Part shown: positions 7,151 through 57,115 of the stretch, piece by piece
How the letters are laid out: each line of letters opens with the position of its first letter
Position numbering within the stretch: position 1 is the stretch's first letter
Origin: Alphaproteobacteria bacterium
GTDB taxonomy: Bacteria > Pseudomonadota > Alphaproteobacteria > UBA9219 > RFNS01
DNA: 64,000 nt
Assembly (NCBI GenBank): GCA_037200005.1
Contig: JBBCGY010000001.1
Coordinates: forward strand, 42,416 to 106,415
Direction of reading: 5' to 3'
Notes under the pieces: generated by a model
What the model saw: only the letters and a program-made list of their open reading frames with translations
Told to the model about the DNA's origin: nothing
Databases searched by the model: none
Made by a program: the position numbers and the translations under genes

Positions 7151-7233
7151 GGAACAATGTGAATGGTCTGTTAGGGGCAAAAAACTCGTCACATCCAACT
7201 TATCAAGTACGTTCCTCGGAAAGAGCTACTCAC

Positions 7234-8319: not shown

Positions 8320-8503
8320 CATGGTTATTTTCTGCATGTTTATGAAGTGCTTAGGTGATATGTTGTTTTGATCGACACATCGTTCCAACATGTCGAAAAA
8401 ATCAGAAAATTTCGACATGTTGAGGCTTGTGCCCTTGTTGGTTCTAAAATGCGCTTAACCGAGGCCAAACAGGCAACGGCATCGCAGTCCAAAGAGAAAA
8501 TCG

Positions 8504-11500: not shown

Positions 11501-11680
11501 GTTGTCTCCGTTCGCAATAATGTGTCTGTTGACTGGATGCACCGCGATAGCGCCCGCGCCAAGTTGCGCATCGAAGTCAAAAAGATTCTCAAGAAATATG
11601 GCTATCCGCCAGATTTACAGGATGCAGCGGTGCAACTGGTGTTGCAGCAGGCCGAAGTTTTGGCCCCACTCTGGGCATAA
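8504..11680 (+). pseudogene. hsdR: Type I restriction endonuclease subunit HsdR, split into three ORFs by two frameshifts (~9560 and ~10140)
   Basis: Three successive overlapping ORFs (8504-9565, 9540-10163, 10133-11680) together cover a ~1058-aa HsdR: N-terminal nuclease region, DEAD-box helicase motifs ([12 protein letters not shown]) and C-terminal domain. The first shift is in a T7 homopolymer (DQLFF|NTFS). Confidence 0.85.
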
Positions 11681-12903: not shown

Positions 12904-12905
12904 GA

Positions 12906-13556
12906 TTATATTTTCCCCTTGTCGTCGGGGATCGAAGCATTTTCCCAGAATGATTCAAATTGCTCGACATATCTTTCGGCCAAGGGCTTGGAGTGTATCG
13001 AAACGACTTCGACATTATGATCGCTGCGATGCACCGCCTGGGCGATATAGTCATTATAGACGTAATAGGGAATGAGGATTTTCGTCGTCTTATCCAGCCA
13101 GCGATATTCGCAATAGCTGGCGGAGAAATTATAGTCGCCATCCAGGATAAGAACGCGGGCGTCAAGATTCGGAAGCTTGCTCATTCTTTCCATATGCTCG
13201 GTCGCATAATCTTGCGCATAGGAAAGGGTCTTGCCGTCGCTGGAATTAAACTGGCGAATGCGTCCACCGTCTTTCAGCGTTTCGTATATATGATCGAGGA
13301 ATTGTCGGTATCCGGCTTTGCCCGAAAAAACCCTGACTTGGTTTCTCCGCATCCGAACGCCCTCGTCATCCAGGAATTCGACGCCGTGCCGGTCGAAAGC
13401 ATTGGTTATGCTGGCGATGGTCTTCTCATGCGGTTGTACCGTATCGGCCTCGATTTTGCTCACGGTCACGCGGGTAAGCCCGGCCTCCCTAGCCAAGTCT
13501 TCCGCTTTCCATTCCAGTAAGCTGCGCGCTGCGCGAATTTGACGCCCGGTAATCAT
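12906..13556 (-). CDS. XRE-family HTH transcriptional regulator with ~150-aa C-terminal domain
   Basis: N-terminal HTH_XRE (IRAARSLLEWKAEDLAREAGLTRVTVSKIE). It is the first gene of a two-gene minus-strand operon. Confidence 0.7.
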   Translation of the reverse strand: MITGRQIRAARSLLEWKAEDLAREAGLTRVTVSKIEADTVQPHEKTIASITNAFDRHGVEFLDDEGVRMRRNQVRVFSGKAGYRQFLDHIYETLKDGGRIRQFNSSDGKTLSYAQDYATEHMERMSKLPNLDARVLILDGDYNFSASYCEYRWLDKTTKILIPYYVYNDYIAQAVHRSDHNVEVVSIHSKPLAERYVEQFESFWENASIPDDKGKI

Positions 13557-14820: not shown

Positions 14821-17800
14821 ATGGTGGCACCTGCGAAGAAATTTCACGAAGCGAACGGCGAACTCACCAATGAGGCAGGGGCAACGCGACCGCCGCTCTC
14901 GAGGAACAGCCTCTGGCGGACACTGCGCCCCGGGATCTCGGTGGGAGTAAGCCTCGCGGCAGTCGTCGCTTGCGAAAGCGGCGAACCCAACGCTTCAAAT
15001 GACAACATCGTTTCGATTTCCCAAGCGATAGGCTCTGCGACAATCTATAGCTTGCCTACCAATGTTTTGATGCCCAATGCCATCAATAATCAAAATCTCA
15101 TTGTGGGCCAGGGTCTGCCTTCGATCTATGATGCCAACACGGGAACATTTAGTAGCCTTGAAGTAAACCAGCCTTCGGGGGCGGTCACTTCCTATGCAAT
15201 TAGCAATGCCGGTCACGTTGTCGGCAATTCATTCAATGTTGGGCCGGTTTCCAATTCGGCGTTCATTTCACAGGGCGGACATTTGTCCGATCTATACGCC
15301 GGCAACAACAACGGGGTGACCAGCGTCGCTTACGGCGTCAACAATTATGGCCAAGTCGTCGGCACGATGCCGGTGACGGTCAACGATGCGAACAATAGTC
15401 CACATCCTTTCACGCATGCGTTCTCGTGGCAGGGCAGCGTTACAGACCTTACACCGAACTACTATGGAAATTCAGCCGCCTATGGCATCAACGATGCTGG
15501 GCAGATCGTGGGAACGATAGGAACTGCGGGGGTCAAGTGGCAGGGCGGATCGTCAAGCACGCTGCCGAGCGGCACCAGCACGCCCGCCATGATCAACAAT
15601 GTCGGTCAGATCGTCGGGACATATAGTTCAGGCGGTTCGTCGCACGCTTTCCTTGTGCAGAGCGGCACCCTGACCGATCTCGGAGCCATACAGGGAAGCA
15701 CACCTGTGAGGATCAACAACAAAGGACAAGTTACGGGCGGCTTCTACAACACGGGTGCCGGACAATATTACCCGAGCGTCTGGCAGAATGGCGTCGTGGT
15801 TACGATTCCCACTCTGTCGGGCATTCCCGCAGGCTGGTCTATCACGTCGATAAACGGCATCAATGACAGCGGAACCGTCGTAGGGCAAGGCACGCTTTCG
15901 GGTTCTTCACGGGGTTTTTACCTAACTTCGCCGCAGCTTCTGAACTACGCCATTGCCGGAAAGCCCTACGATCCGAAAGCGAATGGTGGTGAGGATTCGG
16001 CGTCAACCCCGACAGACGATCTATGTGGAACTCATGGCATGTGTGTGCCCAACGCGCAATTGCTGTCGGCCAGCTTGAATTTGAACGATACGCCGATTGG
16101 GTATCAGCCGCCCAAAGGGCCACCAGCCTATATCCGGCTTACATATAATCATCGTGACAGTGTCGCGCCCAGCAGCACTTCCTCGCATGTTGGGCCAAAC
16201 TGGACTCTGAATGTCATTTCTTACATTCAGGATGATCCGGCCAGCCCGGGCCAGAGCGTCACGCGCAACGTGGCGGGCGGCGGTATCGTCGACTACACTT
16301 TTGAGGCAGGGCAGTTCAATACCACCACGGGTGCATTCGGGCCGGAGAAGCAAACCGGGGCGATCTTGAAACGGACTCCCGCGACAGGGTTCAGCGCCAG
16401 TGCTTCCTATGAGCTTTCCTTTCCCGATGGGGCCAAGCAAATATTCTCCTACCCGGATGGAAGCTTCAATTATCCGCGCCGCGCATTCCTGACGGATATC
16501 GTTGATGCCTCAGGCCAGGGCCTGCATTTTGGCTACAATTATCTTCAAGGAACTTTCGGCGCGATCAATTGCACGCCGGGATGTCCGCAACTGCAATCAG
16601 TTTCTGATGCTAATTTCCGTGCAACAAACTTCGTCTACGGTGACGCATCTAATGTCTTGCGCGTGACGCGGATTAATGACCCGTTCGGGCGTCACGCCGA
16701 TTTAGCTTATGATGGCAGCGGACGGCTTTCGTCAATCACGGATGTGATCGGCATTCAATCGTCTTTCACCTATGACACCACCGACCCTACTTTCATCAAA
16801 AAGCTAACGACACCCTATGGCGATAGCAATTTCGTCTTTGGGCAAGATACGGCGACGGATCGTCGTTGGCTCACACTCTCCGATGCCGTGGGCAATACGG
16901 AAAAAGTGGAATACCGGGGCAGCAGCGCCAGCGGCATAGCGGCGTGCGACAAAAACACGAGCGATGCGTCGTGCAGTGTCTCGACCTCCGTGCCGACAGG
17001 CATGCCTAACGGCATCAATAACGCCGATCTCGACAAGCGCAACACCTTTGTCTGGAACAAATGGATGTATGCGAATGGCTATGGCAGCGATTACACGCAG
17101 GCGAATGTTACCCATTGGCTCAAGGACGGTGCGGGCAATCCCGTGGGGATTCCGGAAAGCGTCAAGCCGCTGTACGAATCCCGCATTTGGTATAATTATC
17201 CCGGCCAGAACGATCCTAGCACCCCAGGAACCCTGTCTGTGCCGAGGGCGACGGGCCGCGTGATCACCGATCCGCTTTACGGGCAAGCGCCGCAGAATCA
17301 GGTTTACCAAAGTCAATATAACAGCCTCGGCAAGCCCACCTTGACCGTCGATCCCTACAAGGTTTCAGGCAACAACAATGAAGGCCGAACTACACGCATG
17401 ACCTATGATGCCTCCGGCGTCGATCTTTTGACGGTGGAACAGAAAACCGGCAGCGGAACGCCGGGGACATGGGCGACGATTGCTTCCTACGTCTATACCG
17501 ATCCGACAGAACAGCCCACATCGATCCACAAACCGATCCGCTATACCGACGCGGCGGGGCAAACTTATAAATTCAAATACAATGGCGACGGCCAATTGAT
17601 CTATGCCGCCAATCCCTACAACGATACGACGTATAATGAATATCATCCGTCCGGCAAGCTCCTGCGGACGACCATGCCTGTGCCGAGCGTAAACTGGAAT
17701 ACCATCGATTATGGAACCGATATTAACGGCGCGCCGACGGGGGCGAGCAACAGCAGCGCCCTAAGGGACACCGCCATTACCTACGACTCCGCCGATCGTC

Positions 17801-20202
17801 CGTATGACGTGACCGACCGGATGGGTCTGGTGAAGCGTTTCGGCTACGACAATCTCGACCGGGTAACGCGGGTGGATTACGCCCCCGGCACGGCGGGCAC
17901 GACCTATGAGACGAACACCTATACCAACCTCGACCTGACATCGCACCGCGACCGGCTTGGCCGGGTTAGCACCGATGTTTACACGGCGAACCGGCAGCTG
18001 TGGCTGAGCTTCAATGCTTCGGGAACGCGGCGGGGCTTCACCTATTACCCGAACGGCGCGCTACAAGGCTACTACGACGAGAACGACCATCCTACAATCT
18101 ACGGCATCGACGGCCAGGGACGCGCCAACGCCGTCGTCTATCCCAATGGCAACCAGACGAATTACTACTACGATGATGGCGGGCGGATGCGCACCATTGT
18201 CGATCTCGACGGCTCGAACCAGCGCTGGCGGAACATTAAATATAACGTCGATAATAGCGTCCATATCCGCGACTATACCAACCCGGCAAATCCGTCCGAT
18301 CCCGTGGTTCTGGCGACGACAACCGCGACCTTCACCTACGATCCATGGTTCCCCGGACAAATGACTTCAATGGCCGATGCCAGCGGAACGACCAACTATA
18401 CATACAAAACCGTAGGCACCGTCGGCGCCTTACAACTCGCGACCGAAAATCCGCCGACGGTAAGCGGCGACGCGGATAAAATCACCTACACCTATGACCA
18501 GAAGGGACGGCTCGCCTCGCGCCAGATCGGTATCGGCACGGCGAGCGTGCTGCCGCAGGAAAGCTGGGTGCGCGACACCTATGGCCGCATTAACAGGCAC
18601 ATCATTCCCGACGGCAACCTGTTCTATTACGACTTCAACGGCGCGAGCAATCAGGTGACAATGCGCGCGTTTCGCAATCAGGCGCTGACGGAGATCGACC
18701 CGCTGAATACGCGCACGATGATGAGCTACGACACGGCGGCGAACGACTCGCGGCTGCTGACGATCAACAACCCGCCCTACGACAACAGCGCGCCCGGCGC
18801 GCGGGACTTCACCCTCAATTGGGGATCGTCGCCCGCCAATCCGTACGTTCCGGCGACGATCACCGACTCCGCTGGAGGCCCCGGCGGGGCGTGGGGACAG
18901 CGGGTGTGGACGATGGGCTATGACGCGCGCGACCGGCTGACCTCGGCGGTCGCCGCCGACCGCAGCTATTCGTTTACCCTGGACGCGCCGGGCAACGCGA
19001 CGAGCTTCACCAGCACGCACTATCCGAGCGGCGGGCTGTATAGCTTTAACTCGACCTACAACACGTCGAACCAGATGACGGTGGCGAACGGCAACGCGCT
19101 GATCTACGACCCCTACGGCAACCTCGTCACCCACACGAACTACCGCAGCTTCAAGTACGACGCCGAGAACCGCCTGATCGAGGTCGACTTCCCCGCCGCG
19201 CCCGCCGACAAGGTTGAGATGCAATATGACGGTCTTGGTCGCCGCACGCAGATCAAATCCACCATCGGCGGCGTCGTCACGACGCGGAACCTGCAATGGT
19301 GCGCCCAGACGACCTCGCCGCCGTTCCAGGGCGCGGCGGAAGAGATATGCGTCGAGCGCGACGCATCGGGCGGCATGCAGCGCATGGTCTATCCCGAGGG
19401 CGAATATCGCGCCAACGGCGGCCGGTACTTTTATGAACGCGACCAGACCGGCAACATCCGCGACGTGATGAAGATGGCGGCGGGATTGACGACCGCCGCG
19501 CGCGATAGCTCCTTCAACTACACGCCTTATGGCGGCGTCGACGGCAAAGACGGCACTGCCGAGCCGCTGCAGCAGTTCGCGGGACTGCTGTATGAGAAGA
19601 ACAGCAACCTGTTCCTCTCCCGCACCCGCGCCTATGCCCCATGGATCGGCAGATGGCTCCAGCGCGATCCGATTGGGCAGAATGGGGGGAGTAATGTTTA
19701 TGAGTATGCGGGGGCGAGTCCGATTAACAAGATTGATCCGAGCGGGTTGCAGGGGGTGCGACCTGGGTTAATAGAAACGATGCGACCTACAATAGGAGTG
19801 CCACCAGCAGCGGGGATCAACGAGGGGGCAGGAAATTACGCCGATTATCTTCAAGAAAATGGAGAAATGATGGGTGATCTAGCCACCCTTTATAGGGCCA
19901 CTAGCGCGGCGGTTGCCGGTGCGAGCAACCAATCAATGCGAGAGGATATTGAAAAAGCAAAAGTATGCACATCGTTTGGAAACAGCATGTCGGCGGATCA
20001 GCCGTTATGGTGCGGGCCTGGCGGATGCGCGGATAGCGTCAGGCAGCAGTGGCTGGATGCGACCGGCGGCTTAGTGTATCCACAAATCATCGAGTCTTTC
20101 AAAAAGAGGTTTGAACCGGCTCCCTCGCGGCTTGTGTCGACGCCGATGCGTGGCAATGACTTCGGTAATTCGGTTTTATTCCCTAATGTGGGCCCAGGTT
20201 AG
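14821..20202 (+). CDS. Rhs-family polymorphic toxin (1793 aa): N-terminal HAF repeats, RHS/YD repeats, RHS core, DPxGL cleavage motif, ~150-aa C-terminal toxin domain
   Basis: Repeated NxxGQ(V/I)VG and HAF motifs in the first ~350 aa. Many YDxxGR(L/R) repeats. RHS core YFYERDQTGNIRDVM. IDPSGLQ (PxxxxDPxGL) at ~19740, followed by a unique tail. A lipobox-like VVAC lies near the N-terminus. Confidence 0.9.
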   Translation: MVAPAKKFHEANGELTNEAGATRPPLSRNSLWRTLRPGISVGVSLAAVVACESGEPNASNDNIVSISQAIGSATIYSLPTNVLMPNAINNQNLIVGQGLPSIYDANTGTFSSLEVNQPSGAVTSYAISNAGHVVGNSFNVGPVSNSAFISQGGHLSDLYAGNNNGVTSVAYGVNNYGQVVGTMPVTVNDANNSPHPFTHAFSWQGSVTDLTPNYYGNSAAYGINDAGQIVGTIGTAGVKWQGGSSSTLPSGTSTPAMINNVGQIVGTYSSGGSSHAFLVQSGTLTDLGAIQGSTPVRINNKGQVTGGFYNTGAGQYYPSVWQNGVVVTIPTLSGIPAGWSITSINGINDSGTVVGQGTLSGSSRGFYLTSPQLLNYAIAGKPYDPKANGGEDSASTPTDDLCGTHGMCVPNAQLLSASLNLNDTPIGYQPPKGPPAYIRLTYNHRDSVAPSSTSSHVGPNWTLNVISYIQDDPASPGQSVTRNVAGGGIVDYTFEAGQFNTTTGAFGPEKQTGAILKRTPATGFSASASYELSFPDGAKQIFSYPDGSFNYPRRAFLTDIVDASGQGLHFGYNYLQGTFGAINCTPGCPQLQSVSDANFRATNFVYGDASNVLRVTRINDPFGRHADLAYDGSGRLSSITDVIGIQSSFTYDTTDPTFIKKLTTPYGDSNFVFGQDTATDRRWLTLSDAVGNTEKVEYRGSSASGIAACDKNTSDASCSVSTSVPTGMPNGINNADLDKRNTFVWNKWMYANGYGSDYTQANVTHWLKDGAGNPVGIPESVKPLYESRIWYNYPGQNDPSTPGTLSVPRATGRVITDPLYGQAPQNQVYQSQYNSLGKPTLTVDPYKVSGNNNEGRTTRMTYDASGVDLLTVEQKTGSGTPGTWATIASYVYTDPTEQPTSIHKPIRYTDAAGQTYKFKYNGDGQLIYAANPYNDTTYNEYHPSGKLLRTTMPVPSVNWNTIDYGTDINGAPTGASNSSALRDTAITYDSADRPYDVTDRMGLVKRFGYDNLDRVTRVDYAPGTAGTTYETNTYTNLDLTSHRDRLGRVSTDVYTANRQLWLSFNASGTRRGFTYYPNGALQGYYDENDHPTIYGIDGQGRANAVVYPNGNQTNYYYDDGGRMRTIVDLDGSNQRWRNIKYNVDNSVHIRDYTNPANPSDPVVLATTTATFTYDPWFPGQMTSMADASGTTNYTYKTVGTVGALQLATENPPTVSGDADKITYTYDQKGRLASRQIGIGTASVLPQESWVRDTYGRINRHIIPDGNLFYYDFNGASNQVTMRAFRNQALTEIDPLNTRTMMSYDTAANDSRLLTINNPPYDNSAPGARDFTLNWGSSPANPYVPATITDSAGGPGGAWGQRVWTMGYDARDRLTSAVAADRSYSFTLDAPGNATSFTSTHYPSGGLYSFNSTYNTSNQMTVANGNALIYDPYGNLVTHTNYRSFKYDAENRLIEVDFPAAPADKVEMQYDGLGRRTQIKSTIGGVVTTRNLQWCAQTTSPPFQGAAEEICVERDASGGMQRMVYPEGEYRANGGRYFYERDQTGNIRDVMKMAAGLTTAARDSSFNYTPYGGVDGKDGTAEPLQQFAGLLYEKNSNLFLSRTRAYAPWIGRWLQRDPIGQNGGSNVYEYAGASPINKIDPSGLQGVRPGLIETMRPTIGVPPAAGINEGAGNYADYLQENGEMMGDLATLYRATSAAVAGASNQSMREDIEKAKVCTSFGNSMSADQPLWCGPGGCADSVRQQWLDATGGLVYPQIIESFKKRFEPAPSRLVSTPMRGNDFGNSVLFPNVGPG
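18996..19750. repeat. direct repeat copy 1 (~755 bp, ~98% identical to 21505-22258): rhs core-end segment
   Basis: Near-identical nucleotide and protein sequence (GNATSFTSTHYPSGGLYSF...PINKIDPSGL) in both copies. The antisense ORF-track entries are duplicated too (19140-19385 = 21651-21896). Confidence 0.85.
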
Positions 20203-20207
20203 TCCTA

Positions 20208-21478
20208 TGAAAAAGTTTACTCTATTGCTTGTCGCGCTTTGTAGTCTGACAATGTTACCGGCTCATGCCGCTGACCAAGACTCCAAACCACCCGTCATTG
20301 ATATTCCTGCCACGCGAAAAGAGGCGGAGTCTGGAGATGCTCGGGCTCAATATAATCTGGGCATAGCTTATCTCAACGGTTACGGGGTGAAGAAAAATAA
20401 AGATGAAGCTATTGAATGGATTTACAAAGCAGGGAAGAACAATGATGCCCTCGCAATATATTTCTTGGGCAGCGCATATCATGATGGCGACCTTTTGCCA
20501 CAAGACTACGCCAAGGCTATGAAGTGGTATCACAGGTCCGATGAATTATACGGCAGTCCCCTTGCGCAGAATATGCTTGGCGTGATGCACGAAAACGGTC
20601 AGGGGGCTCCACAGAATTATGAAGAAGCGGCTAGGTGGTATCGCAAAGCTGCCGAGAATATTTACGCACCGGCTCAATCCCATCTTGGATTCCTATACTA
20701 CGCTGGACGCGGCGTTCCTAAGGACGATCAAAAGGCTCTATATTGGCTTAAGAAAGCAGCCATACAAAACGATGCGCCAGCAAAGCTTATGCTAGGCATT
20801 ATGCACTATAAAGGCGAAGGAGTGGAAAAGAATTACGTTAAAGCTGTCAGCTATTTTCGCGAAGCCGCAGACGTCGGAATATCGATAGCTGAACGATATT
20901 TGGGAAATATGTATTACCACGGCGAAGGCGTTTCCAAGGATGAAGCCCAGGCTGTGTCTTGGTGGCGCAAAGCCGCCGAACAAGGGGATAGGGAGTCGGA
21001 AAAGATCATAGGTGGTATGTACTATTATGGCACAGGAGTGTCGAAGGATTTTTCCCAAGCCGTTTTATGGTGGCAAAAAGCTGCGGAAAAGGGTGATGTC
21101 GATGCTCAATGCAACTTGGCGAAAGCTTACTATCATGGAGAAGGTATAGGAAAAGATGAAACTCAAGCTGTGTTATGGTGGCGGAGGGCCGCGGCACAAG
21201 GACATGGAGAATCCCTCCTTTATTTAGGACAAGCGTATTTTAGTAGCATAGGCGTATCGCAAGATGATGTGCAGGCTTATATATGGCTAAGCTTGGCGGC
21301 TACAAGAAATCAGTCGTCAGCGGTTGCAACACTCACGGAACTCGAAAAGTCCATGACGCCGGAACAAATCGCTGAAGCCAGAAAACGCGTGGCAGAATGG
21401 AAACCCAAGCCTGAGCCAAAGCCTGCCCCAATAGGGCCAATACCCGAAATTCTAAAAGAAGTCCGTGAAGATTTATGA
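20208..21478 (+). CDS. Sel1-repeat protein with signal peptide (candidate periplasmic immunity protein for Rhs-CT1)
   Basis: Signal peptide MKKFTLLLVALCSLTMLPAHA. At least 9 Sel1 repeats (AQYNLGIAYLNGYGVKKNKDEAIEWIYKAG...). Sits immediately downstream of the rhs toxin tip. GC ~45% versus ~62% for the rhs body. Confidence 0.8.
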
Positions 21479-22668
21479 TCTCGACTTCGAGGATGCATTT
21501 GGGCAATGCGACGAGCTTCACCAGCACGCACTATCCGAGCGGCGGGCTGTATAGCTTTAACTCGACCTACAACACGTCGAACCAGATGACGGTGGCGAAC
21601 GGCAACGCGCTGATCTACGACCCCTACGGCAACCTCGTCACCCACACGAACTACCGCAGCTTCAAGTACGACGCCGAGAATCGCCTGATCGAGGTCGACT
21701 TCCCCGCCGCGCCCGCCGACAAGGTTGAGATGCAATATGACGGTCTTGGCCGCCGCACGCAGATCAAATCCACCATCGGGGGCGTCGTCACGACGCGGAA
21801 TCTGCAATGGTGCGCCCAGACGACCTCGCCGCCGTTCCAGGGCGCGGCGGAAGAGATATGCGTCGAGCGCGACGCATCGGGCGGCATGCAGCGCATGGTC
21901 TATCCCGAGGGCGAATATCGCGCCAACGGCGACCGGTACTTTTATGAACGCGACCAGACCGGCAACATCCGCGACGTGATGAAGATGGCGGCGGGATTGA
22001 CGACCGCCGCGCGCGACAGCTCCTTCAACTACACGCCTTATGGCGGCGTCGACGGCAGAGACGGCACCGCCGAGCCGCTGCAGCAGTTCGCGGGACTGCT
22101 GTATGAGAAGAACAGCAACCTGTTCCTCTCCCGCACCCGCGCCTACGCCCCATGGATCGGCAGATGGCTCCAGCGCGATCCGATTGGGCAGAATGGCGGC
22201 GCGAATGTTTATGAATATGCGGGGGCGAGTCCGATTAACAAGATTGATCCGAGCGGGCTTCAAAGCATCCAGAATGCGGATGACTGGATAAAACAGAGAA
22301 ATGCCCCTGCTCAGCCGTCAAATAGTATTTGGAGTGAGATCCTAGATAAAATCAGAGAACCTGTGTCTAGAAATGAAGCCATTAGTGAGATTACAAATTT
22401 CCGTCAATCTGGAGAGGCCCAAACTGAAGCACAGATAGCTAGAATGCTCATGGGTTTACCCGTCGAACCTGATTTTTCTGTTGCTATAGGAGGGGCTGAA
22501 GGTGAGCAAGATCTTGGCAGAGCGATTATGTCGGTAGCGCGCGAGATTTTGCGCCGCCCTGCGGAGCAGTCGTGCCCAATAGTTCAGAGAAAAGTCTTCG
22601 GTCAATCCTTGCCACCAAGTGATTTTGGTGACAAGAATCTCCCACTGCCATCTATATTAACCCTTTAA
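21475..22668 (+). CDS. orphan rhs C-terminal cassette: duplicated core-end plus an alternative 136-aa CT toxin domain
   Basis: The first 260 aa match Rhs residues ~1390-1650, including DPSGLQ. A different tail follows. Its start overlaps the Sel1 gene stop (ATGA), and it lacks the N-terminal 1400 aa. Confidence 0.8.
   Translation: MISTSRMHLGNATSFTSTHYPSGGLYSFNSTYNTSNQMTVANGNALIYDPYGNLVTHTNYRSFKYDAENRLIEVDFPAAPADKVEMQYDGLGRRTQIKSTIGGVVTTRNLQWCAQTTSPPFQGAAEEICVERDASGGMQRMVYPEGEYRANGDRYFYERDQTGNIRDVMKMAAGLTTAARDSSFNYTPYGGVDGRDGTAEPLQQFAGLLYEKNSNLFLSRTRAYAPWIGRWLQRDPIGQNGGANVYEYAGASPINKIDPSGLQSIQNADDWIKQRNAPAQPSNSIWSEILDKIREPVSRNEAISEITNFRQSGEAQTEAQIARMLMGLPVEPDFSVAIGGAEGEQDLGRAIMSVAREILRRPAEQSCPIVQRKVFGQSLPPSDFGDKNLPLPSILTL
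21505..22258. repeat. direct repeat copy 2 of the rhs core-end segment
   Basis: See copy 1. The offset between copies is 2509 bp. Confidence 0.85.
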
Positions 22669-22700
22669 AGAATATGAGTGGAATTGAGGGAGTTAATGCA

Positions 22701-23489
22701 ATGAAGAAGATAATTATTATTACGGCATTTGCTTTGATGGTCGCATCAGTTCAAGCTTATGCTGCCGTCCAGGATGAAAAAGCCGACAGTTTGTTAGGGC
22801 ATCGCCTGTCCGAACAATTACGGAAAACAGAAGCGCAGACAACTCTTGCTGCGGGAAAAGAGCTATTTAAAACAGGCGAAGGTCTTTCTAAGGATAATGT
22901 CGATGCAGTAAAGCTATTTCGCGTAGCTGCCAATCTTGGCTCGATGGAGGCACAAACAATTCTCGGCGCTGCATACCTTAGTGGCGATGGAGTGCAAAAA
23001 GATATTCCTGAAGCTTTAAAATGGATACAAAAATCTGCCGCCCAAGGAGACGCCAAGGCTCAACATTTATTGGGTGTATTGTATCATGAAGGATCAGACG
23101 TAAAAAAAGACAATGTGAAATCGTTAAAATGGATACGGAAAGCAGCGGAGCAAGGTTTGCCATCGGCACAATTTAGTCTTGGCACTATGCTTTCTAAAGG
23201 ATATGGAACACACCGAGATGAAACTTCAGCGATGGAATGGTTTCATAAATCCGCAAACCAAGGCTATGCTAAGGCCCAAATTATGCTCGGAATTGCATAT
23301 CACCTAGGTAAAGATATATCTAAAGACGATATTCTAGCTGATCAATGGCTGATATTGGCCGGGGAAAAAGAGGCACGTGATGATTTGGAAAAATCCATGA
23401 CCCCCGAACAAATCGCCGAAGCTATAAACCGCGCGGCGGAATGGAAGCCGAAACCACCAACCAAGCCCGATCCTGAATCCAAACCGTAG
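22701..23489 (+). CDS. Sel1-repeat protein with signal peptide (candidate immunity for orphan CT2)
   Basis: RBS GAGGGAG. Signal peptide MKKIIIITAFALMVASVQAYA. About 5 Sel1 repeats. The C-terminal KSMTPEQIAEA...EWKPKP tail is shared with the first Sel1 protein. Confidence 0.8.
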   Translation: MKKIIIITAFALMVASVQAYAAVQDEKADSLLGHRLSEQLRKTEAQTTLAAGKELFKTGEGLSKDNVDAVKLFRVAANLGSMEAQTILGAAYLSGDGVQKDIPEALKWIQKSAAQGDAKAQHLLGVLYHEGSDVKKDNVKSLKWIRKAAEQGLPSAQFSLGTMLSKGYGTHRDETSAMEWFHKSANQGYAKAQIMLGIAYHLGKDISKDDILADQWLILAGEKEARDDLEKSMTPEQIAEAINRAAEWKPKPPTKPDPESKP

Positions 23490-23513
23490 CGTCTAATTTC
23501 AAGGCAAGAAGCG

Positions 23514-23882
23514 ATGAAATTTATCCGATTTTATGTCGTTGCATCTCTTGTTCTTGGAGTTTTGCAGATTGCTGACGGCATCGTTCTTGTTTCGTATGGC
23601 ACAATAGCAATTAGTAATATTTTCTCTTTGCTCGAAGCTATATGGGTTGTTGTCTCGATGATAGCGCTTTGGTTTTTCATAAAAAGCAAATTTCCAATAT
23701 TCATTCCGACGACATATATTTTATACAATGTTGCTGGCTGGGGATACGGGGCCTATTTGTTTTCACAATTGCAAAATTCTGACCAAATAATCGACGTTCC
23801 TCTTTGGTTTAAAATTGCGGGTATTTGTTTTGGCATCTATTTTGCCTGCGTAAATTTCATATTGTATAAACGAAAACTGTGA
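23514..23882 (+). CDS. small 4-TM membrane protein (122 aa), possible orphan immunity protein
   Basis: Four hydrophobic helices. Very AT-rich. It is the last gene of the rhs immunity array. Confidence 0.5.
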   Translation: MKFIRFYVVASLVLGVLQIADGIVLVSYGTIAISNIFSLLEAIWVVVSMIALWFFIKSKFPIFIPTTYILYNVAGWGYGAYLFSQLQNSDQIIDVPLWFKIAGICFGIYFACVNFILYKRKL

Positions 23883-25584: not shown

Positions 25585-25776
25585 ATGAGCCAGGAAGCAT
25601 ATCGCGTGAAAGAATTCTGCAACCGCTACGCCATTTCAAAAGCCAGCTTCTACCGGGAAACAGCGGCGAAGCGGCTGCATATCCTAAAACGTGGCCGTAC
25701 AACGCTCGTTGCCCGCACCGAAGCCGAACGCTGGTTTGAAAGCCTTGGCCAAGGCCAGCCGCAGCAATCAGCCTGA
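25585..25776 (+). CDS. AlpA/Xis-like phage-type transcriptional regulator (63 aa)
   Basis: RBS AAGGGAGGAAG. AlpA-like HTH (FCNRYAISKASFYRETAAKRLHILKRGRTTLVARTEAERW). Immediately upstream of the integrase. Confidence 0.7.
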   Translation: MSQEAYRVKEFCNRYAISKASFYRETAAKRLHILKRGRTTLVARTEAERWFESLGQGQPQQSA

Positions 25777-25843
25777 TCGCATTCAATATCCCGAATATTT
25801 CCAAAGCCATTTTTCGTCAATCTTATTCTCATGGAGGCATGTC

Positions 25844-27031
25844 ATGCGCCATACGGGACATATTCGCCAGCGTTCAGAAGGGAGTTTCGAGCTTCGCTAT
25901 AGCATCGGCACCGATCCGGTCACGGGAAAATGGAAAGTCAAAACCGTCACCGTTAAGGGAACGCGCAAAGCTGCCGAGAAAGAATTGCGCCGCATACTCG
26001 ATGCAATCGATGACAATGATTATGTCGAACCCAATAAAATCACTACCCGTGATTTTTTGACACAATGGCTTGAAACAATGCGTTCCCAGATAACCCCCAA
26101 ATCCTATGAAAGCTACGCTGAAATAGTCGATAACTTCCTTATCCCAACTCTTGGCGGTCATATTCTGGCGAAACTTGCTCCGGCTGTTATCCAAAAAGCC
26201 TACAATGGATGGGAAGCTGGTGGCCGCAGGGATAAAAAGGCGGGCGGGCTGGCGGCGCGTTCCCGTCTCTATATCCACCGCATCCTTAAATCGGCACTCA
26301 AACATGCCGTGCAAATACAGCTAATCGCCCGCAATCCCGCCGACGCGGTTAAAGCGCCGCGCGTCAAGAAAGCCGCCATAACTACATTGACCGTGGATCA
26401 ATCGGCGGCGCTGCTCGATGCCCTGTCCGGCAAGCCGCTTTATTGGCCTGTGTTGCTTGCCCTAACAACGGGCATGCGCCGGGGTGAAATTCTGGCGCTT
26501 CGCTGGAAGAATATCGACTTTGAAAAGAAAACTGTTCGCGTCGTCGAAAGTCTAGAGCAAACCAACACAGGCATTCGCTTCAAGGCTCCGAAAACGGAAC
26601 GGAGTCGTGCCGTCATGTTGCCGGATTATGCCGTTGAAGAACTGCGGAGACTGAAAAAAGAACAGGAGAAAAAATTGTCGGAATCAGGAATCGGCCAAAC
26701 CACTGAAACGCTGGTTTGCGGTCGCTATGACGGCGAACCGCTATGGCCTACCTCACTTACGCATGAATTCGTGAAGGCCATGAAGAAACTGCCGAAACTG
26801 CCGCGCGCCAGATTCCATGATTTGCGCCATTCCCATGCCACGCAACTCCTGACAGCAGGAATCCATCCCAAAATCGCGCAAGAACGGCTGGGACATACCA
26901 CGATTACGACAACCCTAGACCTCTATTCCCATGCGACGGACACCATGCAAGACGAGGCTGCATCAAAGCTCGACAATGCCTTCCGTTCTGCTATAAAGGC
27001 CCGTTCCGACCAAGCGCCACGACTAGGATAA
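25844..27031 (+). CDS. tyrosine-type site-specific recombinase/integrase (phage integrase family)
   Basis: Catalytic region RFHDLRHSHATQLLTAGIHPKIAQERLGHTTITTTLDLYSH (R...HxxR...Y). The most likely start is MRHTGHIRQRSEG rather than the extended ORF from 25691. Confidence 0.9.
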   Translation: MRHTGHIRQRSEGSFELRYSIGTDPVTGKWKVKTVTVKGTRKAAEKELRRILDAIDDNDYVEPNKITTRDFLTQWLETMRSQITPKSYESYAEIVDNFLIPTLGGHILAKLAPAVIQKAYNGWEAGGRRDKKAGGLAARSRLYIHRILKSALKHAVQIQLIARNPADAVKAPRVKKAAITTLTVDQSAALLDALSGKPLYWPVLLALTTGMRRGEILALRWKNIDFEKKTVRVVESLEQTNTGIRFKAPKTERSRAVMLPDYAVEELRRLKKEQEKKLSESGIGQTTETLVCGRYDGEPLWPTSLTHEFVKAMKKLPKLPRARFHDLRHSHATQLLTAGIHPKIAQERLGHTTITTTLDLYSHATDTMQDEAASKLDNAFRSAIKARSDQAPRLG

Positions 27032-27111
27032 ATTGGTTCTGTAGCAATTTCTGTAGCAAAATCGATTTTGCTTCCGGTAGGAATACTCTAAGTGTATGTT
27101 TTTGCTGATGT

Positions 27112-27187
27112 GACCTTGTAGCTCAGCCGGTAGAGCATCTGACTTTTAATCAGGGGGTCGCGGGTTCGAACCCCGCCGAGGTCACCA
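27112..27187 (+). tRNA. tRNA-Lys (anticodon UUU) with encoded CCA
   Basis: Cloverleaf: acceptor gaccttg/cgaggtc; D-arm gctc-agccggta-gagc; anticodon arm tctga-cTTTTaa-tcagg; T-arm gcggg-ttcgaac-cccgc; discriminator a; CCA. Confidence 0.9.
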
Positions 27188-27189
27188 GC

Positions 27190-27250
27190 TATAAACGGAC
27201 TTTTAAGTCCGTTTATAGCTGGTTATGAAGTTGGGTTCGAACCCGCGACA
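27190..27250. repeat. perfect 16-bp-stem hairpin (agctataaacggactt/aagtccgtttatagct) followed by an inverted 17-nt copy of the tRNA T-arm (gtcgcgggttcgaaccc)
   Basis: The revcomp of 27221-27250 contains gtcgcgggttcgaaccc, identical to tRNA positions 48-64. This is a possible att remnant or degenerate tRNA fragment. Confidence 0.45.
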
Positions 27251-27360
27251 AAATAACAGTCGGGTTCACTTCCTGCCCAAGAGGCAGGAAGCCACGCGGC
27301 AAAAAATCCAATAAAACACTTCGCGTACAACCCCGCCACAGCGCCGCCATACACGAGGCT

Positions 27361-28557
27361 CTAACCCCGCCCATAACCCGCGCAGAATTCGACGAGCGAT
27401 TCCAAATTCATCGGCCTGGCGATAAAATATCCCTGAGCGAGATCGCATCCCATGCCCTTCACGGTCTCCCAGTCTTTCTCAGTTTCGATTCCTTCCGCGA
27501 CGCATTGGATCTCCAGCTGATGCGCCATCTCAATGCTGGATTTTACGATGATGCCCAATGCGTTGTTGTCGGCGCAGTCTCTGATGAAGGACTGGTCGAT
27601 TTTCAGTTCTCTGAAATCGATGCGCATCATCTGCTGGATATTGGAAAATCCCGTGCCGTAATCGTCGATGGAAAGCGGAAAGCCGTGCATCCTCAGCCTG
27701 GCCAGATTTTCCAGGGAATGCGCGACATTCAGCATGGCCGCGGACTCGGTGATCTCGAACATGACGAGATTCGGATTGATGCCCGCATCGCGCACGACCC
27801 GCAGGATTTTATCCGCGAGATCGGGATTGTCCAGGAGACTGGGGGATAGATTGACGGAGACGGAAAGCGGATGGCCGTTGTCGTGCAGAAGCCGGCAAGC
27901 GGCGATGGATTTTTCCATAATGAGGTAGGTCAGCTTCTCGATATTATCGCTTTTCTCGAGCGGCTCGATGAAGGCGTAGGGGGAGATGACGCCATGTTCG
28001 GGGTGAATCCACCGGGCGAGCGCCTCCGCGCCATGCACGATGCCGGTCTTAAACCCGACCTTGGGCTGATAGAAAGGCTCGAACTGCTTCTGCTCTATGC
28101 CGTTCAGAATATCCTCGATGGTAAAATCAGGCGTCGCCGCCTGCCTGGACGTCCTGGACTGGAGGGCGCGATGCCGTGAAATAAAGGCTTCGATATGCAA
28201 CGGCGAAAGAGGCTTCTGTATCGCTCCCAGCAGCCTGACATTATAGGCGGCGGCCATTTTCTTCACCGTCCCGATGAGGGCGCCGTCGTGCGAGCTTATG
28301 ATGACGACGGAAACGTCCGGATGATTCTTCCCCAAATGGCGGAGAAATTCCATGCCGTCCATTCCGGGCATATTGAGATCGCAAAGAACGATATCGATCG
28401 AATTTCCGTCCTGGCGCCGGAGTATCTCCAGCGCCATTTTGCCGTCGGATGCTTCCAATACCGGCTTGGAGCTATGCGGGCGCAGCATATTCGCCGTCGT
28501 CAGCCGCAAGAAATCGTCATCGTCCAGCACCAGGAAATTCAACTCATCTTTGCTCAT
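27361..28557 (-). CDS. response regulator with EAL (c-di-GMP phosphodiesterase) domain
   Basis: N-terminal REC (LVLDDDDFLR...DLNMPGMDG). EAL signature EITESAAM...IDDYGTGFSN...KIDQSFI. Confidence 0.85.
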   Translation of the reverse strand: MSKDELNFLVLDDDDFLRLTTANMLRPHSSKPVLEASDGKMALEILRRQDGNSIDIVLCDLNMPGMDGMEFLRHLGKNHPDVSVVIISSHDGALIGTVKKMAAAYNVRLLGAIQKPLSPLHIEAFISRHRALQSRTSRQAATPDFTIEDILNGIEQKQFEPFYQPKVGFKTGIVHGAEALARWIHPEHGVISPYAFIEPLEKSDNIEKLTYLIMEKSIAACRLLHDNGHPLSVSVNLSPSLLDNPDLADKILRVVRDAGINPNLVMFEITESAAMLNVAHSLENLARLRMHGFPLSIDDYGTGFSNIQQMMRIDFRELKIDQSFIRDCADNNALGIIVKSSIEMAHQLEIQCVAEGIETEKDWETVKGMGCDLAQGYFIARPMNLESLVEFCAGYGRG

Positions 28558-29338
28558 GGGCCGCCTTCCTATGCATCACGGTCGGACAGTTGGTATAGTA
28601 ATATTCGAGCTTCTCGGGAGAAAAATTCTTGGCGACGAAGCCCTTGGCGCCGAGATTCTTAGCGGTCAGGACATTATCCTTCACGCTGTCGCTGCTGATA
28701 ATAATAACATAAGCGCTGGGGTCGAAGCTAAGAATCTCGGATAACGCTTCCATGCCCGAGCCTCCAGGCAGATGAATATCGAGAAAAAGTATGTCGGGGA
28801 GCATACTTAAGTATGTTTCCACGAGGCCGTCGATGCCGCCCACTTCGACGACATGTATTTTGGGATGGAAAACCCTGGCGATCAGCGACCTGACGAACAT
28901 ATCGTCCTCGACCACCATGACGATGTCGCGCGCCCTTTCCATTCTCGCCGTGAGCAAAGGAGGCGTGTCCGATTTTTCCTTCATGGCGTCCTGAAGCCGA
29001 AGCTGGAGCCTGGGCAGCCCTCCCATGGCGGCGGGCATCGCCTCGACGGAACAGCTATATTGCGGCATTGTCTTTTCAATATCCGAGCACAGGCCGTCAG
29101 GATCCGTTTGCGGCCCCATATTGACGAGCGCCAGAATCTCCCGGCCGGCGCATACGAAAATAACCCCATCGATGCCGCGAAAGTACTCGCGCAACTTCCA
29201 TGCTATATGGGGCGCGTTATGCGTGGTCTTCCCTGTCAGGGAGACGGCGACGAATTGCCACGCGTTTATATCTTTTTTGACTTTGGCGGCGAATTGTAAG
29301 AGCTTCGCATGATCATAGGAAGGCAGAAACTCCATCAT
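28544..29338 (-). CDS. response regulator receiver protein with uncharacterized ~130-aa N-terminal domain
   Basis: C-terminal REC domain (IVMVVEDDMFVRS...LFLDIHLPGGSG...AKGFVAKNF). Overlaps the EAL gene by 14 bp. Confidence 0.7.
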   Translation of the reverse strand: MMEFLPSYDHAKLLQFAAKVKKDINAWQFVAVSLTGKTTHNAPHIAWKLREYFRGIDGVIFVCAGREILALVNMGPQTDPDGLCSDIEKTMPQYSCSVEAMPAAMGGLPRLQLRLQDAMKEKSDTPPLLTARMERARDIVMVVEDDMFVRSLIARVFHPKIHVVEVGGIDGLVETYLSMLPDILFLDIHLPGGSGMEALSEILSFDPSAYVIIISSDSVKDNVLTAKNLGAKGFVAKNFSPEKLEYYYTNCPTVMHRKAAHEQR

Positions 29339-29346
29339 CTTCTCCC

Positions 29347-31860
29347 ATGCCGCATAAGGTGGCCTTATGCATAAGGAATGAAACCGTGGCCGAGCCGTAT
29401 AATGAACAATTTTTGACTAAACTCCACCTGTTTGTCAAAGCCGCAAGCGTAGCCATTATTCTGGGCGGCTGCGCCTCTATTGCCGGGTGGCAATTCGATA
29501 TTGCCGCGCTGCGGAGCCTCGGGCCGGGCTTCACGGCGATGAATCCCGGCTCGACGGCGATCGGCTTTTTGCTGACGGGCTGGGCGCTATGGGGCCGGCA
29601 GGCGGGAGTGCCTCACCGTCTAAAATATCAGGCTCATATATGCGCTTTCGGCATTCTGGCGATCGCTATCTGCTGGATCGTCGTCCGATGGCTCGGCTGC
29701 GATTGCGGCATGGACCAGATGCTGTATCGGGATAAGCTTCACATGGAAGCTCTGCTCACCGGCCGTCCCAACCGCATGGCGCCGAACACGGCGGCGACGT
29801 TTCTTCTTGCCGGGCTTGCGCTGCTGTTTCTCGACGTCAAATACCGCCGCATACGCATATGGCCGGCGCAGTTTCTCGCCGTAGGCGTCATATTAAGCTC
29901 CCTGCTGACACTTATCGGCTATTTATACAACTCGATCTCCTTGATCGGCTTCAAGAATTTTACGCCCATGGCGCCCAATACGGCCACCTTGTTCCTGCTG
30001 ACGGGCGGCGCGATTCTATGCCTGCGTCCCAAACGCGGCCTGATGGCCATTATAAGCGGCGCAGGCGCGGGCGGCATGCAAGCGCGCCGCCTGCTGCCTT
30101 TGATCGTCGCGATCCCCGCCAGCGTCGGCTTGATAGAAGAACACGCCCAGTCGGCGGGCCTGCTGGATCAAGCCCTCCTGCTGCCGGTTTTCGCGCTGAC
30201 CAATATCGTCGCCCTTGCGGCATTGATCTGGTGGGGCTCGGCTTCCGTAGGAAAATTGGATCGCCAGAGGCGGCACGCCGAGGAGGATCTGCAAAAAGAA
30301 AAAGCCGCTTCCGACAAAGCCAATCAGGCCAAATCCGAATTCCTGGCCAATATGTCGCATGAGCTGAGAACGCCGCTCAACAGCATCATCGGCCTGAACC
30401 GGATGCTTTACGAAGATAAAACCCTCGATGCCGAGCATAAGGAAATGGTCGGCATTTCCTTCCGGGCGGCCACCAATCTGCTGAACATCGTCAATGATAT
30501 TCTCGATTTATCGAAGATCGAGGCCGGAGCCCTGGAACTCGAAAAGATCATCTTCTCGCCGGAAGAAGTGGCCAACAACATCATGGAGGTATTCCTTCCT
30601 CTATGCAGTCAGAAGGGCCTGGCGCTGACGTGCGATTTCGCCACCGGCACCGCGCCTTATCTCGTCGGCGATCCGCTCCGGCTGGGGCGCATCATGCTCA
30701 ACCTGGTCAGCAATGCCGTCAAATACACCGAGAAGGGATCGATCAAGATCGATATCTCGTTTTCTCCCGCCGGTCCGGATTACCTGACGATGGATTGCGG
30801 CGTCACGGACACGGGTATCGGGATACCGGCGGACAGGCTGGACCGCATCTTCGACAAATTCATGCAGGCGGATTCTTCCATCACGCGCAAATATGGCGGC
30901 ACCGGGCTTGGCCTGAATATCGCCCAGCATTTGACCGCGCAGATGGGAGGGCAGATGGGCGTGGAGAGCGCCGAAGGCGTAGGGTCGCGTTTTTGGTTCA
31001 GAATTCCGTTCCCGACTTCGGAAATCAGGCCCATGCTCGATAAAAGAATCTTCCAGGGCCAGCATCCGGACAGGCTGCCCGAAGAACGGCGGAAAAGAAT
31101 GGAGGATATCAGCATTCTGGTCGGGGAGGACCATCTGCTGAATCAGGAATATGTGACAAGGCTTCTGGCCAGAATGGGCCTCGGCAACCATCATATCGTG
31201 GACAGCGGGAAAATGATCCTGGAGGCCCTGGACCGGAAATCATACGATCTCATCCTGATGGATTGCCACATGCCCCTCCTGAGCGGATATGAGGCGACGA
31301 AGGCGATCCGGCTCAAGGAAAAAGAAACCGAGAACCATGTTCCCATCATCGCCATGACGGCGGACGCCATGCCCGGAACGCGGGAACGGTGCCTGATCTC
31401 GGGCATGGATGATTATATCAGCAAGCCGATCAATCCCGACGAACTGCGTCATATCATGAGCCGGTGGGTGACGTTCGCGGACGATGATAGCGCGGACGGC
31501 CCCCATGAAGCCGCGGCGGCGCTCGGCGGCGCATTCGGTCTTCCCACCTTGATGGCTTTCGCGAAAAGCGACGACGATCTGCGGCGGCTGCAGGAAGTGT
31601 TCGTGCGGCAGTCGGAGCACACCCTCGAAGGCTTGCGCAATAATCGCAGCGACGGAGAGAATGCGGCATGGGTCGAAGCGGCGCATAAATTAATGGGAAG
31701 CGCGACGGCGGCAAAGGCGGAAAAACTAAGGGCCGCGTGCGAACGGGCGCAAGAAATGGCAAACGCCGCCGCCATTCAGCGCCAGGCGATCTTCGATGAG
31801 ATTTGCGCGGCCTATGACGAAGTCAAGAAAATCCTTCTGGAAGAAAAATGGCATGGCTGA
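29347..31860 (+). CDS. hybrid sensor histidine kinase (multi-TM sensor, HisKA, HATPase_c, REC, C-terminal HPt-like)
   Basis: H-box MSHELRTPLNSIIGL. G-box GGTGLGLNIAQ. Receiver DLILMDCHMPLLSGY. At least 8 N-terminal TM helices. The true start may lie downstream of 29347. Confidence 0.85.
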   Translation: MPHKVALCIRNETVAEPYNEQFLTKLHLFVKAASVAIILGGCASIAGWQFDIAALRSLGPGFTAMNPGSTAIGFLLTGWALWGRQAGVPHRLKYQAHICAFGILAIAICWIVVRWLGCDCGMDQMLYRDKLHMEALLTGRPNRMAPNTAATFLLAGLALLFLDVKYRRIRIWPAQFLAVGVILSSLLTLIGYLYNSISLIGFKNFTPMAPNTATLFLLTGGAILCLRPKRGLMAIISGAGAGGMQARRLLPLIVAIPASVGLIEEHAQSAGLLDQALLLPVFALTNIVALAALIWWGSASVGKLDRQRRHAEEDLQKEKAASDKANQAKSEFLANMSHELRTPLNSIIGLNRMLYEDKTLDAEHKEMVGISFRAATNLLNIVNDILDLSKIEAGALELEKIIFSPEEVANNIMEVFLPLCSQKGLALTCDFATGTAPYLVGDPLRLGRIMLNLVSNAVKYTEKGSIKIDISFSPAGPDYLTMDCGVTDTGIGIPADRLDRIFDKFMQADSSITRKYGGTGLGLNIAQHLTAQMGGQMGVESAEGVGSRFWFRIPFPTSEIRPMLDKRIFQGQHPDRLPEERRKRMEDISILVGEDHLLNQEYVTRLLARMGLGNHHIVDSGKMILEALDRKSYDLILMDCHMPLLSGYEATKAIRLKEKETENHVPIIAMTADAMPGTRERCLISGMDDYISKPINPDELRHIMSRWVTFADDDSADGPHEAAAALGGAFGLPTLMAFAKSDDDLRRLQEVFVRQSEHTLEGLRNNRSDGENAAWVEAAHKLMGSATAAKAEKLRAACERAQEMANAAAIQRQAIFDEICAAYDEVKKILLEEKWHG

Positions 31861-56713: not shown

Positions 56714-56759
56714 AGGAGGGATAAAACCGATTCGTGATTCATACTACGTTATAGTCAGT

Positions 56760-56960: not shown

Positions 56961-57115
56961 AGCCAAGTAACTATAGGAAATAGCCGGAAAAGCGCCATGA
57001 GAAAACAACAATTTTCGACTTTTCCCCAGAAGCAGGCGTGACATGGGTGCAACGGACGGTGAACAACAAAGATTAACGGATAGATAAGCGGGAAACAAAC
57101 CGCTCGATAGCGGCT

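Follow-up and report, generated by a model that had tools for sequence, protein, structure and literature searches.

A 31.7-kb integrative island of an uncultured alphaproteobacterium, probably inserted through the 5' half of a tRNA-Lys(UUU) gene

We analysed a 64,000-nucleotide stretch of DNA from an uncultured alphaproteobacterium (assembly GCA_037200005.1, contig JBBCGY010000001.1, positions 42,416 to 106,415 of the forward strand), called the window below, in which an integrase gene and a tRNA-Lys(UUU) gene follow each other on the same strand. Coordinates are positions in the window unless a contig is named, and the features are collected in Table 1. The tRNA gene is intact, it is the only one in the window, and it was the sole match when 26800-27500 was searched with Rfam; it starts 80 bp after the stop codon of the integrase gene. 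The integrase is built of a SAM-like domain near the N-terminus and a catalytic domain at the C-terminus, and its residues R212, H325, R328, H351 and Y361 are invariant in an alignment of 25 sequences. From these catalytic residues, which follow the R..H-x-x-R..H/W..Y pattern, and from its match with PF00589, the protein is assigned to the tyrosine recombinases of the phage integrase family. The open reading frame (ORF) directly upstream of the integrase gene encodes a 63-aa helix-turn-helix (HTH) protein, which was matched by HTH_17 with an E-value of 1.7e-4 (22.2 bits, Pfam cut-off 27) and by the excisionase family TIGR01764 with an E-value of 1.2e-3 (19.1 bits, cut-off 28.8), while a Pfam profile search gave no match with PF05930 (AlpA). 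Judged by its place next to the integrase gene, this protein is likely to be an excisionase, and "excisionase-like HTH" is a safer label for it than "AlpA". An earlier reading of the window made from the letters alone (the sequence-only reading) had described the locus as an AlpA-integrase-tRNA-Lys module; the integrase and the tRNA-Lys(UUU) gene on one strand are as it stated, and the name AlpA is the less safe one, given the missing PF05930 match and the sub-threshold scores with HTH_17 and TIGR01764.

A search of the window for repeated parts of the tRNA gene gave nothing beyond chance except an inverted copy of the T-arm, which is taken up further below. We therefore extended the sequence leftwards on the source contig (JBBCBH010010965.1 of assembly GCA_037975565.1, 1.83 Mb), where locus L001 overlaps the window and adds 8909 nt to its left. 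Here, we found a perfect direct repeat of 42 bp (E 2e-19) on the same strand, one copy of which covers the start of the tRNA gene and the other of which lies 4.5 kb left of the window. In tRNA numbering the repeated block runs from -3 to 39, which is the entire 5' half of the gene, the anticodon loop (32-38) and one further nucleotide. The interval from repeat to repeat measures 31,671 bp (~31.67 kb), with the integrase gene near its right end. The upstream copy is bordered on its left by core genes of high GC content (60-68 %), namely gyrA, coaD and a PF02594 gene, and directly inside this copy the GC content falls to 39-55 %. Short-read contigs from the same sample end within the 42-bp block, as expected because it is a repeat.

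Both copies of the block are accompanied by short tandem repeats. The pair TTCTGTAGCA-AT-TTCTGTAGCA stands between the integrase gene and the tRNA gene, and the same 22 bp (TTCTGTAGCAATTTCTGTAGCA) recur at L001 4503-4524, 114 nt inside the upstream copy. The exact 10-mer TTCTGTAGCA has only four sites in about 73 kb, all of them at the two ends of the interval and all in one orientation. These motifs would lie on both arms of the attachment site of the element (attP), and their positions are kept in relatives; we regard them as candidate arm-type sites for binding of the integrase (Int). An 18-nt perfect palindrome, AGCAAAATCGATTTTGCT (27055-27072), overlaps the second arm repeat between the integrase and tRNA genes and is possibly one more site of protein binding in attP.

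We consider it highly probable that these features belong to an integrative island of ~31.7 kb, which has entered the chromosomal tRNA-Lys(UUU) gene in a "reverse" configuration with the 5' half of the gene as its target. The reading is carried by the repeat, its register in the tRNA gene, the arm repeats, the integrase, the break in GC content and the same architecture in relatives. A 5'-half target had been one of the alternatives offered by the sequence-only reading, and it is borne out by a -3 to 39 repeat of 42 bp that bounds a low-GC island of 31.67 kb with an integrase, with relatives built alike. That reading had also pointed to direct repeats of the tRNA 3' end as the place to look, and had named a canonical attL/attR pair around a conventionally oriented island as the outcome that would speak against an atypical geometry. 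No repeat of the 3' end was found between 27.3 and 64 kb, and the repeat left of the window is one of the 5' half; a canonical attL/attR pair does exist, and the orientation of the island is not the conventional one. The odd arrangement of the integrase and tRNA genes is in this way resolved into a precisely bounded island whose left end lies outside the 64-kb window, and an island of this form would escape an annotation that looks downstream of the gene for 3' tRNA fragments only.

Table 1. Features of the island, its ends and the adjoining host DNA
Feature	Position	Strand	Basis or remark
tRNA-Lys(UUU)	27112-27187	+	intact; ARAGORN; Rfam tRNA 72.5 bits
Tyrosine integrase, 395 aa	25844-27031	+	Pfam PF00589 (Phage_integrase) 4e-29, PF14659 (Phage_int_SAM_3) 2e-10
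63-aa HTH protein, putative excisionase / recombination directionality factor	25585-25776	+	sub-threshold profiles and position
Putative attR core, 42-bp identity block	27109-27150	+	element-borne 5' half joined to host 3' half; predicted crossover at 27143-27149 (anticodon loop)
Putative attL, displaced host 5' half of tRNA-Lys	L001 4347-4388 (window -4562 to -4521)	+	42-bp direct repeat
Island, part within the window	1-27150	+	left end outside the window
P-arm, two tandem candidate arm-type repeats TTCTGTAGCA-AT-TTCTGTAGCA	27037-27058	+	53 nt before tRNA start
Perfect 40-nt palindrome, 19-nt arms, 2-nt centre	27184-27223 (27184-27202 / 27205-27223)	.	overlaps the ACCA end of the tRNA; host side
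17-nt exact inverted T-arm copy	27233-27249	.	matches 27157-27173 (tRNA positions 46-62); 45 nt after the gene
Type I restriction-modification cluster (hsdM split, hsdS, hsdR)	2332-11680	+	Pfam
Coiled-coil / ATPase-like ORF, 484-517 aa	5597-7150		between hsdS and hsdR of the type I restriction-modification cluster
SoFic-type Fic defence gene	7159-8319	+	PADLOC PDLC03963, E 2.7e-115; between hsdS and hsdR
Rhs toxin (1793 aa), Sel1-repeat proteins, orphan Rhs C-terminal cassette	14821-23489	+	Pfam RHS_repeat, Sel1

The proposed course of integration can be set out as follows. attP would begin just downstream of the integrase gene with the two arm repeats, followed by a spacer of ~53 bp with a -10-like box and by the tRNA-Lys 5' half through the anticodon loop, and it would continue past this core for about 114 bp to two more arm-type repeats. 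Int, acting on arm and core sites, would have carried out the strand exchange inside the 7-bp segment of the chromosomal site (attB) that corresponds to the anticodon loop, a step for which we rely on the pattern in the integrase family and on established knowledge of lambda-type recombination. The 5' half brought by the island would have been fused to the 3' half of the host gene, giving an intact chimeric tRNA gene beside the integrase gene (attR), and the host promoter and 5' half would have been displaced by 31.7 kb and left as an orphan at attL. The predicted junction sequences are CCCTATTTTCCGCTCCTTGTGACCTTGTAGCTCAGCCGGTAGAGCATCTGACTTTTAATCAGGGGGTCGCGGG for attB in an empty site and GTGTATGTTTTTGCTGATGTGACCTTGTAGCTCAGCCGGTAGAGCATCTGACTTTTAATTTTATCCGGCCTGTTCCC for attP in the circle. 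The small HTH protein may serve as the excisionase, and the element may still be able to excise; its att repeats are perfect, and its integrase gene is intact and encodes the invariant catalytic residues.

An exchange of this kind would also affect the upstream region of the tRNA gene. The host copy at attL is preceded by TTGCCT-17-TATTTT, which ends 11 nt before the gene, and the island copy is preceded at the same 11-nt distance by TATGTT (27095-27100) without a good -35 element. We suggest tentatively that the resident tRNA-Lys gene might now be transcribed from island DNA, by this TATGTT box or by read-through from the integrase gene. In the reversed form the resident tRNA gene depends on upstream DNA supplied by the element, which could couple housekeeping tRNA expression to a mobile element. 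It is unlikely, though conceivable, that the island controls how much tRNA-Lys(UUU) is supplied, having put its own upstream sequence in place of the host promoter.

The integrase has more than 3600 homologues, and we compared 80 related loci that were obtained by a scan of one genome per species. In 24 of these 80 loci a tRNA gene lies on the same strand 47-536 bp after the integrase gene; these loci, mostly from Alphaproteobacteria, carry tRNAs Ser-UGA, Ser-CGA, Arg-CCU, Trp, Cys and Lys-CUU, and they include all 12 loci that have an adjacent tRNA gene and an integrase of at least 47 % identity. The conventional geometry, with a tRNA gene on the opposite strand after the integrase gene, was seen at 19 more distant loci (Acidobacteriota, Bacillota, Chloroflexota and others), and at seven loci the tRNA gene lies just upstream of the integrase gene. 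In a neighbour-joining tree the clade of the window's integrase is uniformly reversed, and orientation tracks the clades, having switched more than once.

Repeats could be read in these loci only if the 10-kb flank contained the other end as well. In L008, positions -3 to 39 of a tRNA-Ser(CGA) gene are repeated (43 bp, 100 %) around an element of about 8.2 kb, and the block ends at the last nucleotide of the loop; in L033 the repeat spans -14 to 40. In the conventional loci L035, L041 and L051 the repeated block extends from position 33, the first nucleotide of the loop, to the 3' end of the gene (56-58 bp, 100 %). Since the 7-nt anticodon loop is common to both kinds of block, these integrases form an anticodon-loop ("symmetric sublocation") family with the loop as the putative crossover region. 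Tandem arm repeats equivalent to those of the window occur in L008 (TTCGGTAGCA twice, 54 and 116 nt from the core), and those of L033 (TTTGGGNGGCAA twice) are spaced from the core just as in the window. Two D-arm positions distinguish the displaced 5' half of L033 from the resident one, and the resident tRNA gene of L033 is therefore chimeric.

It is worth mentioning that one further locus (L032, CAWJXT010000016.1) has a truncated integrase gene followed by the 5' half of a tRNA-Ser(UGA) gene alone (positions 1-39), 107-145 nt past the integrase match, which fits a 5' half that travels with the element; the site is either a junction within a tandem array or an attP that has not been integrated. 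Support also comes from a metagenome scan with the tRNA 3' half, made in the search for an empty site, which returned one 1.1-kb contig (L087). In it, the decayed 3' end of an integrase gene lies upstream of a near-identical tRNA-Lys(UUU) gene, and since the contig ends at that gene it has no bearing on the downstream palindrome. A distant same-strand relative in a Clostridium metagenome-assembled genome (MAG) (L057, 6562-6603) has a repeat of tRNA-Ser -14 to 27, which ends in the region of the D-arm and anticodon stem and may reflect a different crossover position or an effect of tandem tRNA genes. Within this one anticodon-loop integrase family the place of attP relative to the integrase gene is fixed and the tRNA segment faces either way, and the alphaproteobacterial clades mostly show the reversed form with conserved spacing of the arm sites.

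The 3' part of a tRNA gene is the usual target of recombination, and the statement of the sequence-only reading that classical islands place the integrase 3' of the tRNA is right as a majority rule, to which the present geometry adds a documented minority. The reversed arrangement with a 5' fragment was reportedly described already by Zhao and Williams in 2002. Known islands of this type have, like the present one, an intact tRNA gene beside the integrase gene and a displaced direct 5' fragment at the far end, and in them too the 5' part of the gene, and hence its upstream region, comes from the element; what differs here is the target, tRNA-Lys(UUU), and the host, an uncultured alphaproteobacterium (MAG GCA_037975565.1). 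A class of tyrosine integrases with an anticodon-loop sublocation is said to have been described by Williams in 2002 (NAR 30:866). The identity block of the present island ends at the anticodon loop as in this class (site class "A" of Islander, 2083 islands), the 7-nt loop is flanked by a stem like a lambda-type core, and conventional relatives start their block at position 33; the present block differs in running toward the 5' end of the gene and not toward its 3' end.

Islander lists 159 of 3919 islands with a 5' tRNA gene fragment as compared to 3760 with a 3' fragment, and 2083 are centred on the anticodon (PMC4383910). When the locus is held against the tests used there, an intact tRNA gene is paired with a displaced fragment in direct orientation (42 bp, 100 %, same strand), the fragment reaches the end of the gene and lies upstream of it as a 5' fragment (-3 to 39, 31.67 kb upstream), an integrase gene is present within the interval, and the block ends in the window at position 39, next to the loop at 32-38, as expected for the anticodon-loop sublocation. 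The island thus agrees with every Islander criterion that could be tested, and it is a new case of the known minority class with 5' fragments and not a new kind of island.

A similar layout has been reported for the archaeal Thermococcales, where integrases of the pTN3/TKV4 type (Cossu et al. 2017; Krupovic & Bamford 2008) have the tRNA 5' half as attB; the restored tRNA is described as expressed from the integrase promoter and the class as "seldomly encountered in bacteria" (PMC8371274). The present island resembles them in its layout, with the tRNA 5' half in use, and differs in that arm repeats and a possible -10 box separate its integrase and tRNA genes. With attP of the phage lambda type it shares tandem short repeats that flank the core at distances of about 50-115 bp, an integrase N-terminal domain upstream of the SAM-like domain and a small HTH gene beside the integrase gene; unlike in lambda, all four repeats have the same orientation, and no IHF or Xis sites were identified. 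We also considered plasmid pPDL2 of Sphingobium as an experimental relative and set it aside, as it integrates at the 3' end of tRNA-Ser (PMC3516476) and a search of the plasmid collection gave no alphaproteobacterial relative of the integrase.

On the other side of the tRNA gene lies the inverted copy of its T-arm. The sequence-only reading had reported a perfect 16-bp hairpin after the gene, followed by a 17-nt inverted T-arm copy. The copy is exact as described, and the palindrome is perfect, with arms of 19 nt that include the ACCA end of the tRNA gene. Of the 17 nt of the copy, 12 (GGGTTCGAACCC) are self-complementary, and its orientation therefore rests on the five extra nucleotides only; GGGTTCGAACCC occurs twice in 64 kb, where 0.01 occurrences are expected. 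Taken together, 27157-27250 form a quasi-palindrome of ~94 nt, made of a perfect block of 17 nt, an unmatched block of 10/9 nt and a perfect block of 19 nt, mirrored about a 2-nt centre; its arms measure 46 and 45 nt, and the distances of the T-arm copies to the centre are 30.5 and 29.5 nt. In a predicted RNA fold of 27112-27262 (-78.9 kcal/mol, z = -10.4) this region becomes a long interrupted helix, which would compete with the cloverleaf. A scan for intrinsic terminators did not score the palindrome, and no T-run follows it.

These features were checked in two ways. Among 72 tRNA genes of the fetched loci, the next-longest inverted match within 120 nt downstream is 10 nt; with the window as one case in 72, we rejected the idea that the palindrome and T-arm copy are a general trait of the targets of this integrase family. 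A short-read assembly made independently from this sample (Logan contig) is identical over 27141-27360, and this exact reproduction led us to reject an artefact of the NCBI assembly. The apex of the hairpin (27198-27206) has the same 9-mer, GACTTTTAA, as the anticodon stem-loop at 27141-27149, where the crossover is predicted. This position is curious, but about 8 % of control tRNAs likewise have a direct match of 9 nt or more, and as the identity is within chance we gave it no weight. The palindrome and the inverted T-arm belong to the host side and stand outside the recombination system of the island.

The sequence-only reading had taken these features, with the position of the integrase, as signs of repeated or nested integration. 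On such a view the inverted T-arm would be the scar of an older element, and the true boundary would lie downstream of the tRNA gene. The gene is indeed followed, after 45 nt, by a real 17-nt copy of tRNA sequence, the GC content is mildly lowered over the next 5 kb, and, read directly, GGGTTCGAACCC-GC fits T-arm positions 51-65 with one deletion. However, there is no direct repeat of the tRNA 3' part anywhere in 27.3-64 kb, no second integrase was found in the window, and the fragment has no counterpart at the other target tRNA genes of the integrase family that were compared. The best match is inverted, and integrase-mediated insertion yields no inverted fragments, which Islander takes as its measure of false positives (PMC4383910). 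The fragment is also mirror-symmetric to the T-arm about the centre of the palindrome, as an inverted duplication would be and an att scar would not, and the attL/attR pair, with attR within the tRNA gene itself, fully accounts for the integrase; we therefore regard an older or nested integration as very improbable. Slightly less probable again is that the whole tRNA-Lys gene is cargo or a chance neighbour, with the integrase targeting some other site and the 42-bp copy being an unrelated partial tRNA pseudogene. Complete tRNA genes can ride on mobile elements, and the empty site was not recovered, but the repeat, like those of L008 and L033, starts at the 5' end of the gene and has its other end precisely at the anticodon loop, the break in GC content coincides with it, arm repeats stand beside both copies at conserved distances, and 24 related integrases lie in the same register to various tRNAs. 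Several results do count against an island in the 5' half of the gene. For an empty attB, the homologues of RsmB and of the EAL regulator and their contigs reached at most 70 % identity (best 65-70 %) and showed no synteny, and a metagenome scan with a 26-mer spanning the left flank and the tRNA start gave 0 matches. No excised form was seen, and no free attP was found in phage and plasmid collections, where the integrase has only relatives of at most 37 % identity, from Bacillota. A scan with the sigma-70 consensus scored no promoter upstream of the resident tRNA gene, the profiles of the putative excisionase stay below their curated thresholds, and the 5 kb right of the tRNA gene are also somewhat GC-poor (52-58 %), so that composition alone does not mark the right boundary, which rests on the repeat.

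For the quasi-palindrome taken by itself, we see about an even chance that it arose independently of the island, by inverted duplication or template switching around a trailer hairpin, and that if it has a role at all, this is as a 3' trailer or terminator. This reading is favoured by the symmetric perfect blocks of 19 and 17 nt, the arms of 46/45 nt, the very stable fold (z = -10.4), the presence in the independent assembly and the uniqueness among the 72 tRNA genes, by which the feature is not a trait of the targets of the integrase family. Against it, the missing T-run means that the structure is not a canonical intrinsic terminator, the predicted long helix would compete with the cloverleaf, and an unmatched block of 10/9 nt between perfect blocks is odd for a plain duplication followed by drift. 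On balance, a local inverted duplication around the trailer hairpin is weakly favoured. It is unlikely, though conceivable, that the quasi-palindrome is functional and not debris, either as a trailer that keeps the pre-tRNA in a non-cloverleaf helix until it is processed or as a scar of recombination in a "wrong" alignment at the palindromic TTCGAA of the T-loop.

The composition of the island differs along its length. On average, 1-27 kb have a GC content of about 50 %, as compared to about 61-62 % at 32-64 kb; the lowest values, 40.8-41.8 %, are found at 6-7 kb and 23-24 kb, and rhs reaches 59-61 %, which is roughly the compositional patchiness of 1-27 kb that had been noted from the sequence. 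The cargo was scanned with Pfam, with NCBIfam or PADLOC on subsets and with precomputed Pfam calls for the left part, and small ORFs were covered in part. Among the larger island ORFs scanned (at least 122 aa), no relaxase, type IV secretion system, virion or packaging genes were found, so that the island does not qualify as an integrative conjugative element or a prophage.

In the type I restriction-modification cluster, hsdM (2332-3892) consists of two overlapping ORFs in both assemblies, one with HsdM_N (151 aa) and one with N6_Mtase (383-392 aa), which reflects either a genuine frameshift or a naturally divided gene. In contrast, hsdR (8504-11680) is broken into three ORFs in the window and is intact, with 1058 aa, in an independent short-read contig (L002). 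The sole differences between the two assemblies over 11.8 kb are two 1-nt indels (9558 and 10132), one of them in a T-run, and these are probably consensus errors of the NCBI assembly and not signs of a pseudogene. The island ORFs also include a SprT-like protein (Pfam). The Rhs/Sel1 toxin-immunity array (14821-23882) is ordered as a 1793-aa Rhs protein, a 455-aa Sel1 protein, the orphan cassette (21475-22668), a 271-aa Sel1 protein and a 122-aa ORF, and a 300-nt repeat of 99 % identity links the main Rhs gene (18990-19289) with the orphan cassette (21501-21800). An Rhs array of such layout is the usual signature of toxin-tip displacement. In addition, three pairs of a Cro/C1-type HTH protein with a 316-422-aa protein without family match (L001 4533-8110 and window 11773-13556) lie inside the island and are possible toxin-antitoxin or abortive-infection modules.

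To the right of the tRNA gene, the host-side flank begins with a response-regulator/EAL gene, a response regulator and a hybrid histidine kinase, followed by housekeeping genes (RsmB, the CCA-adding enzyme, PagL and PepN). The first three genes (27361-31860) have a GC content of 52-58 % as compared to ~62 % in the core. The EAL and kinase pair recurs in a 65 %-identical relative (L088), where it is not beside a tRNA gene, and 27361-31860 gave no att evidence of a second island. Further into the core, perfect 26-nt inverted repeats (TAGGGTCCAACCTTAATTAGAATGGG) enclose 215 nt at 53387-53653, and nested inverted repeats of 28-30 nt lie ~3 kb away at 56750-56975; these intergenic repeats are either palindromes like those of miniature inverted-repeat transposable elements or regulatory palindromes.

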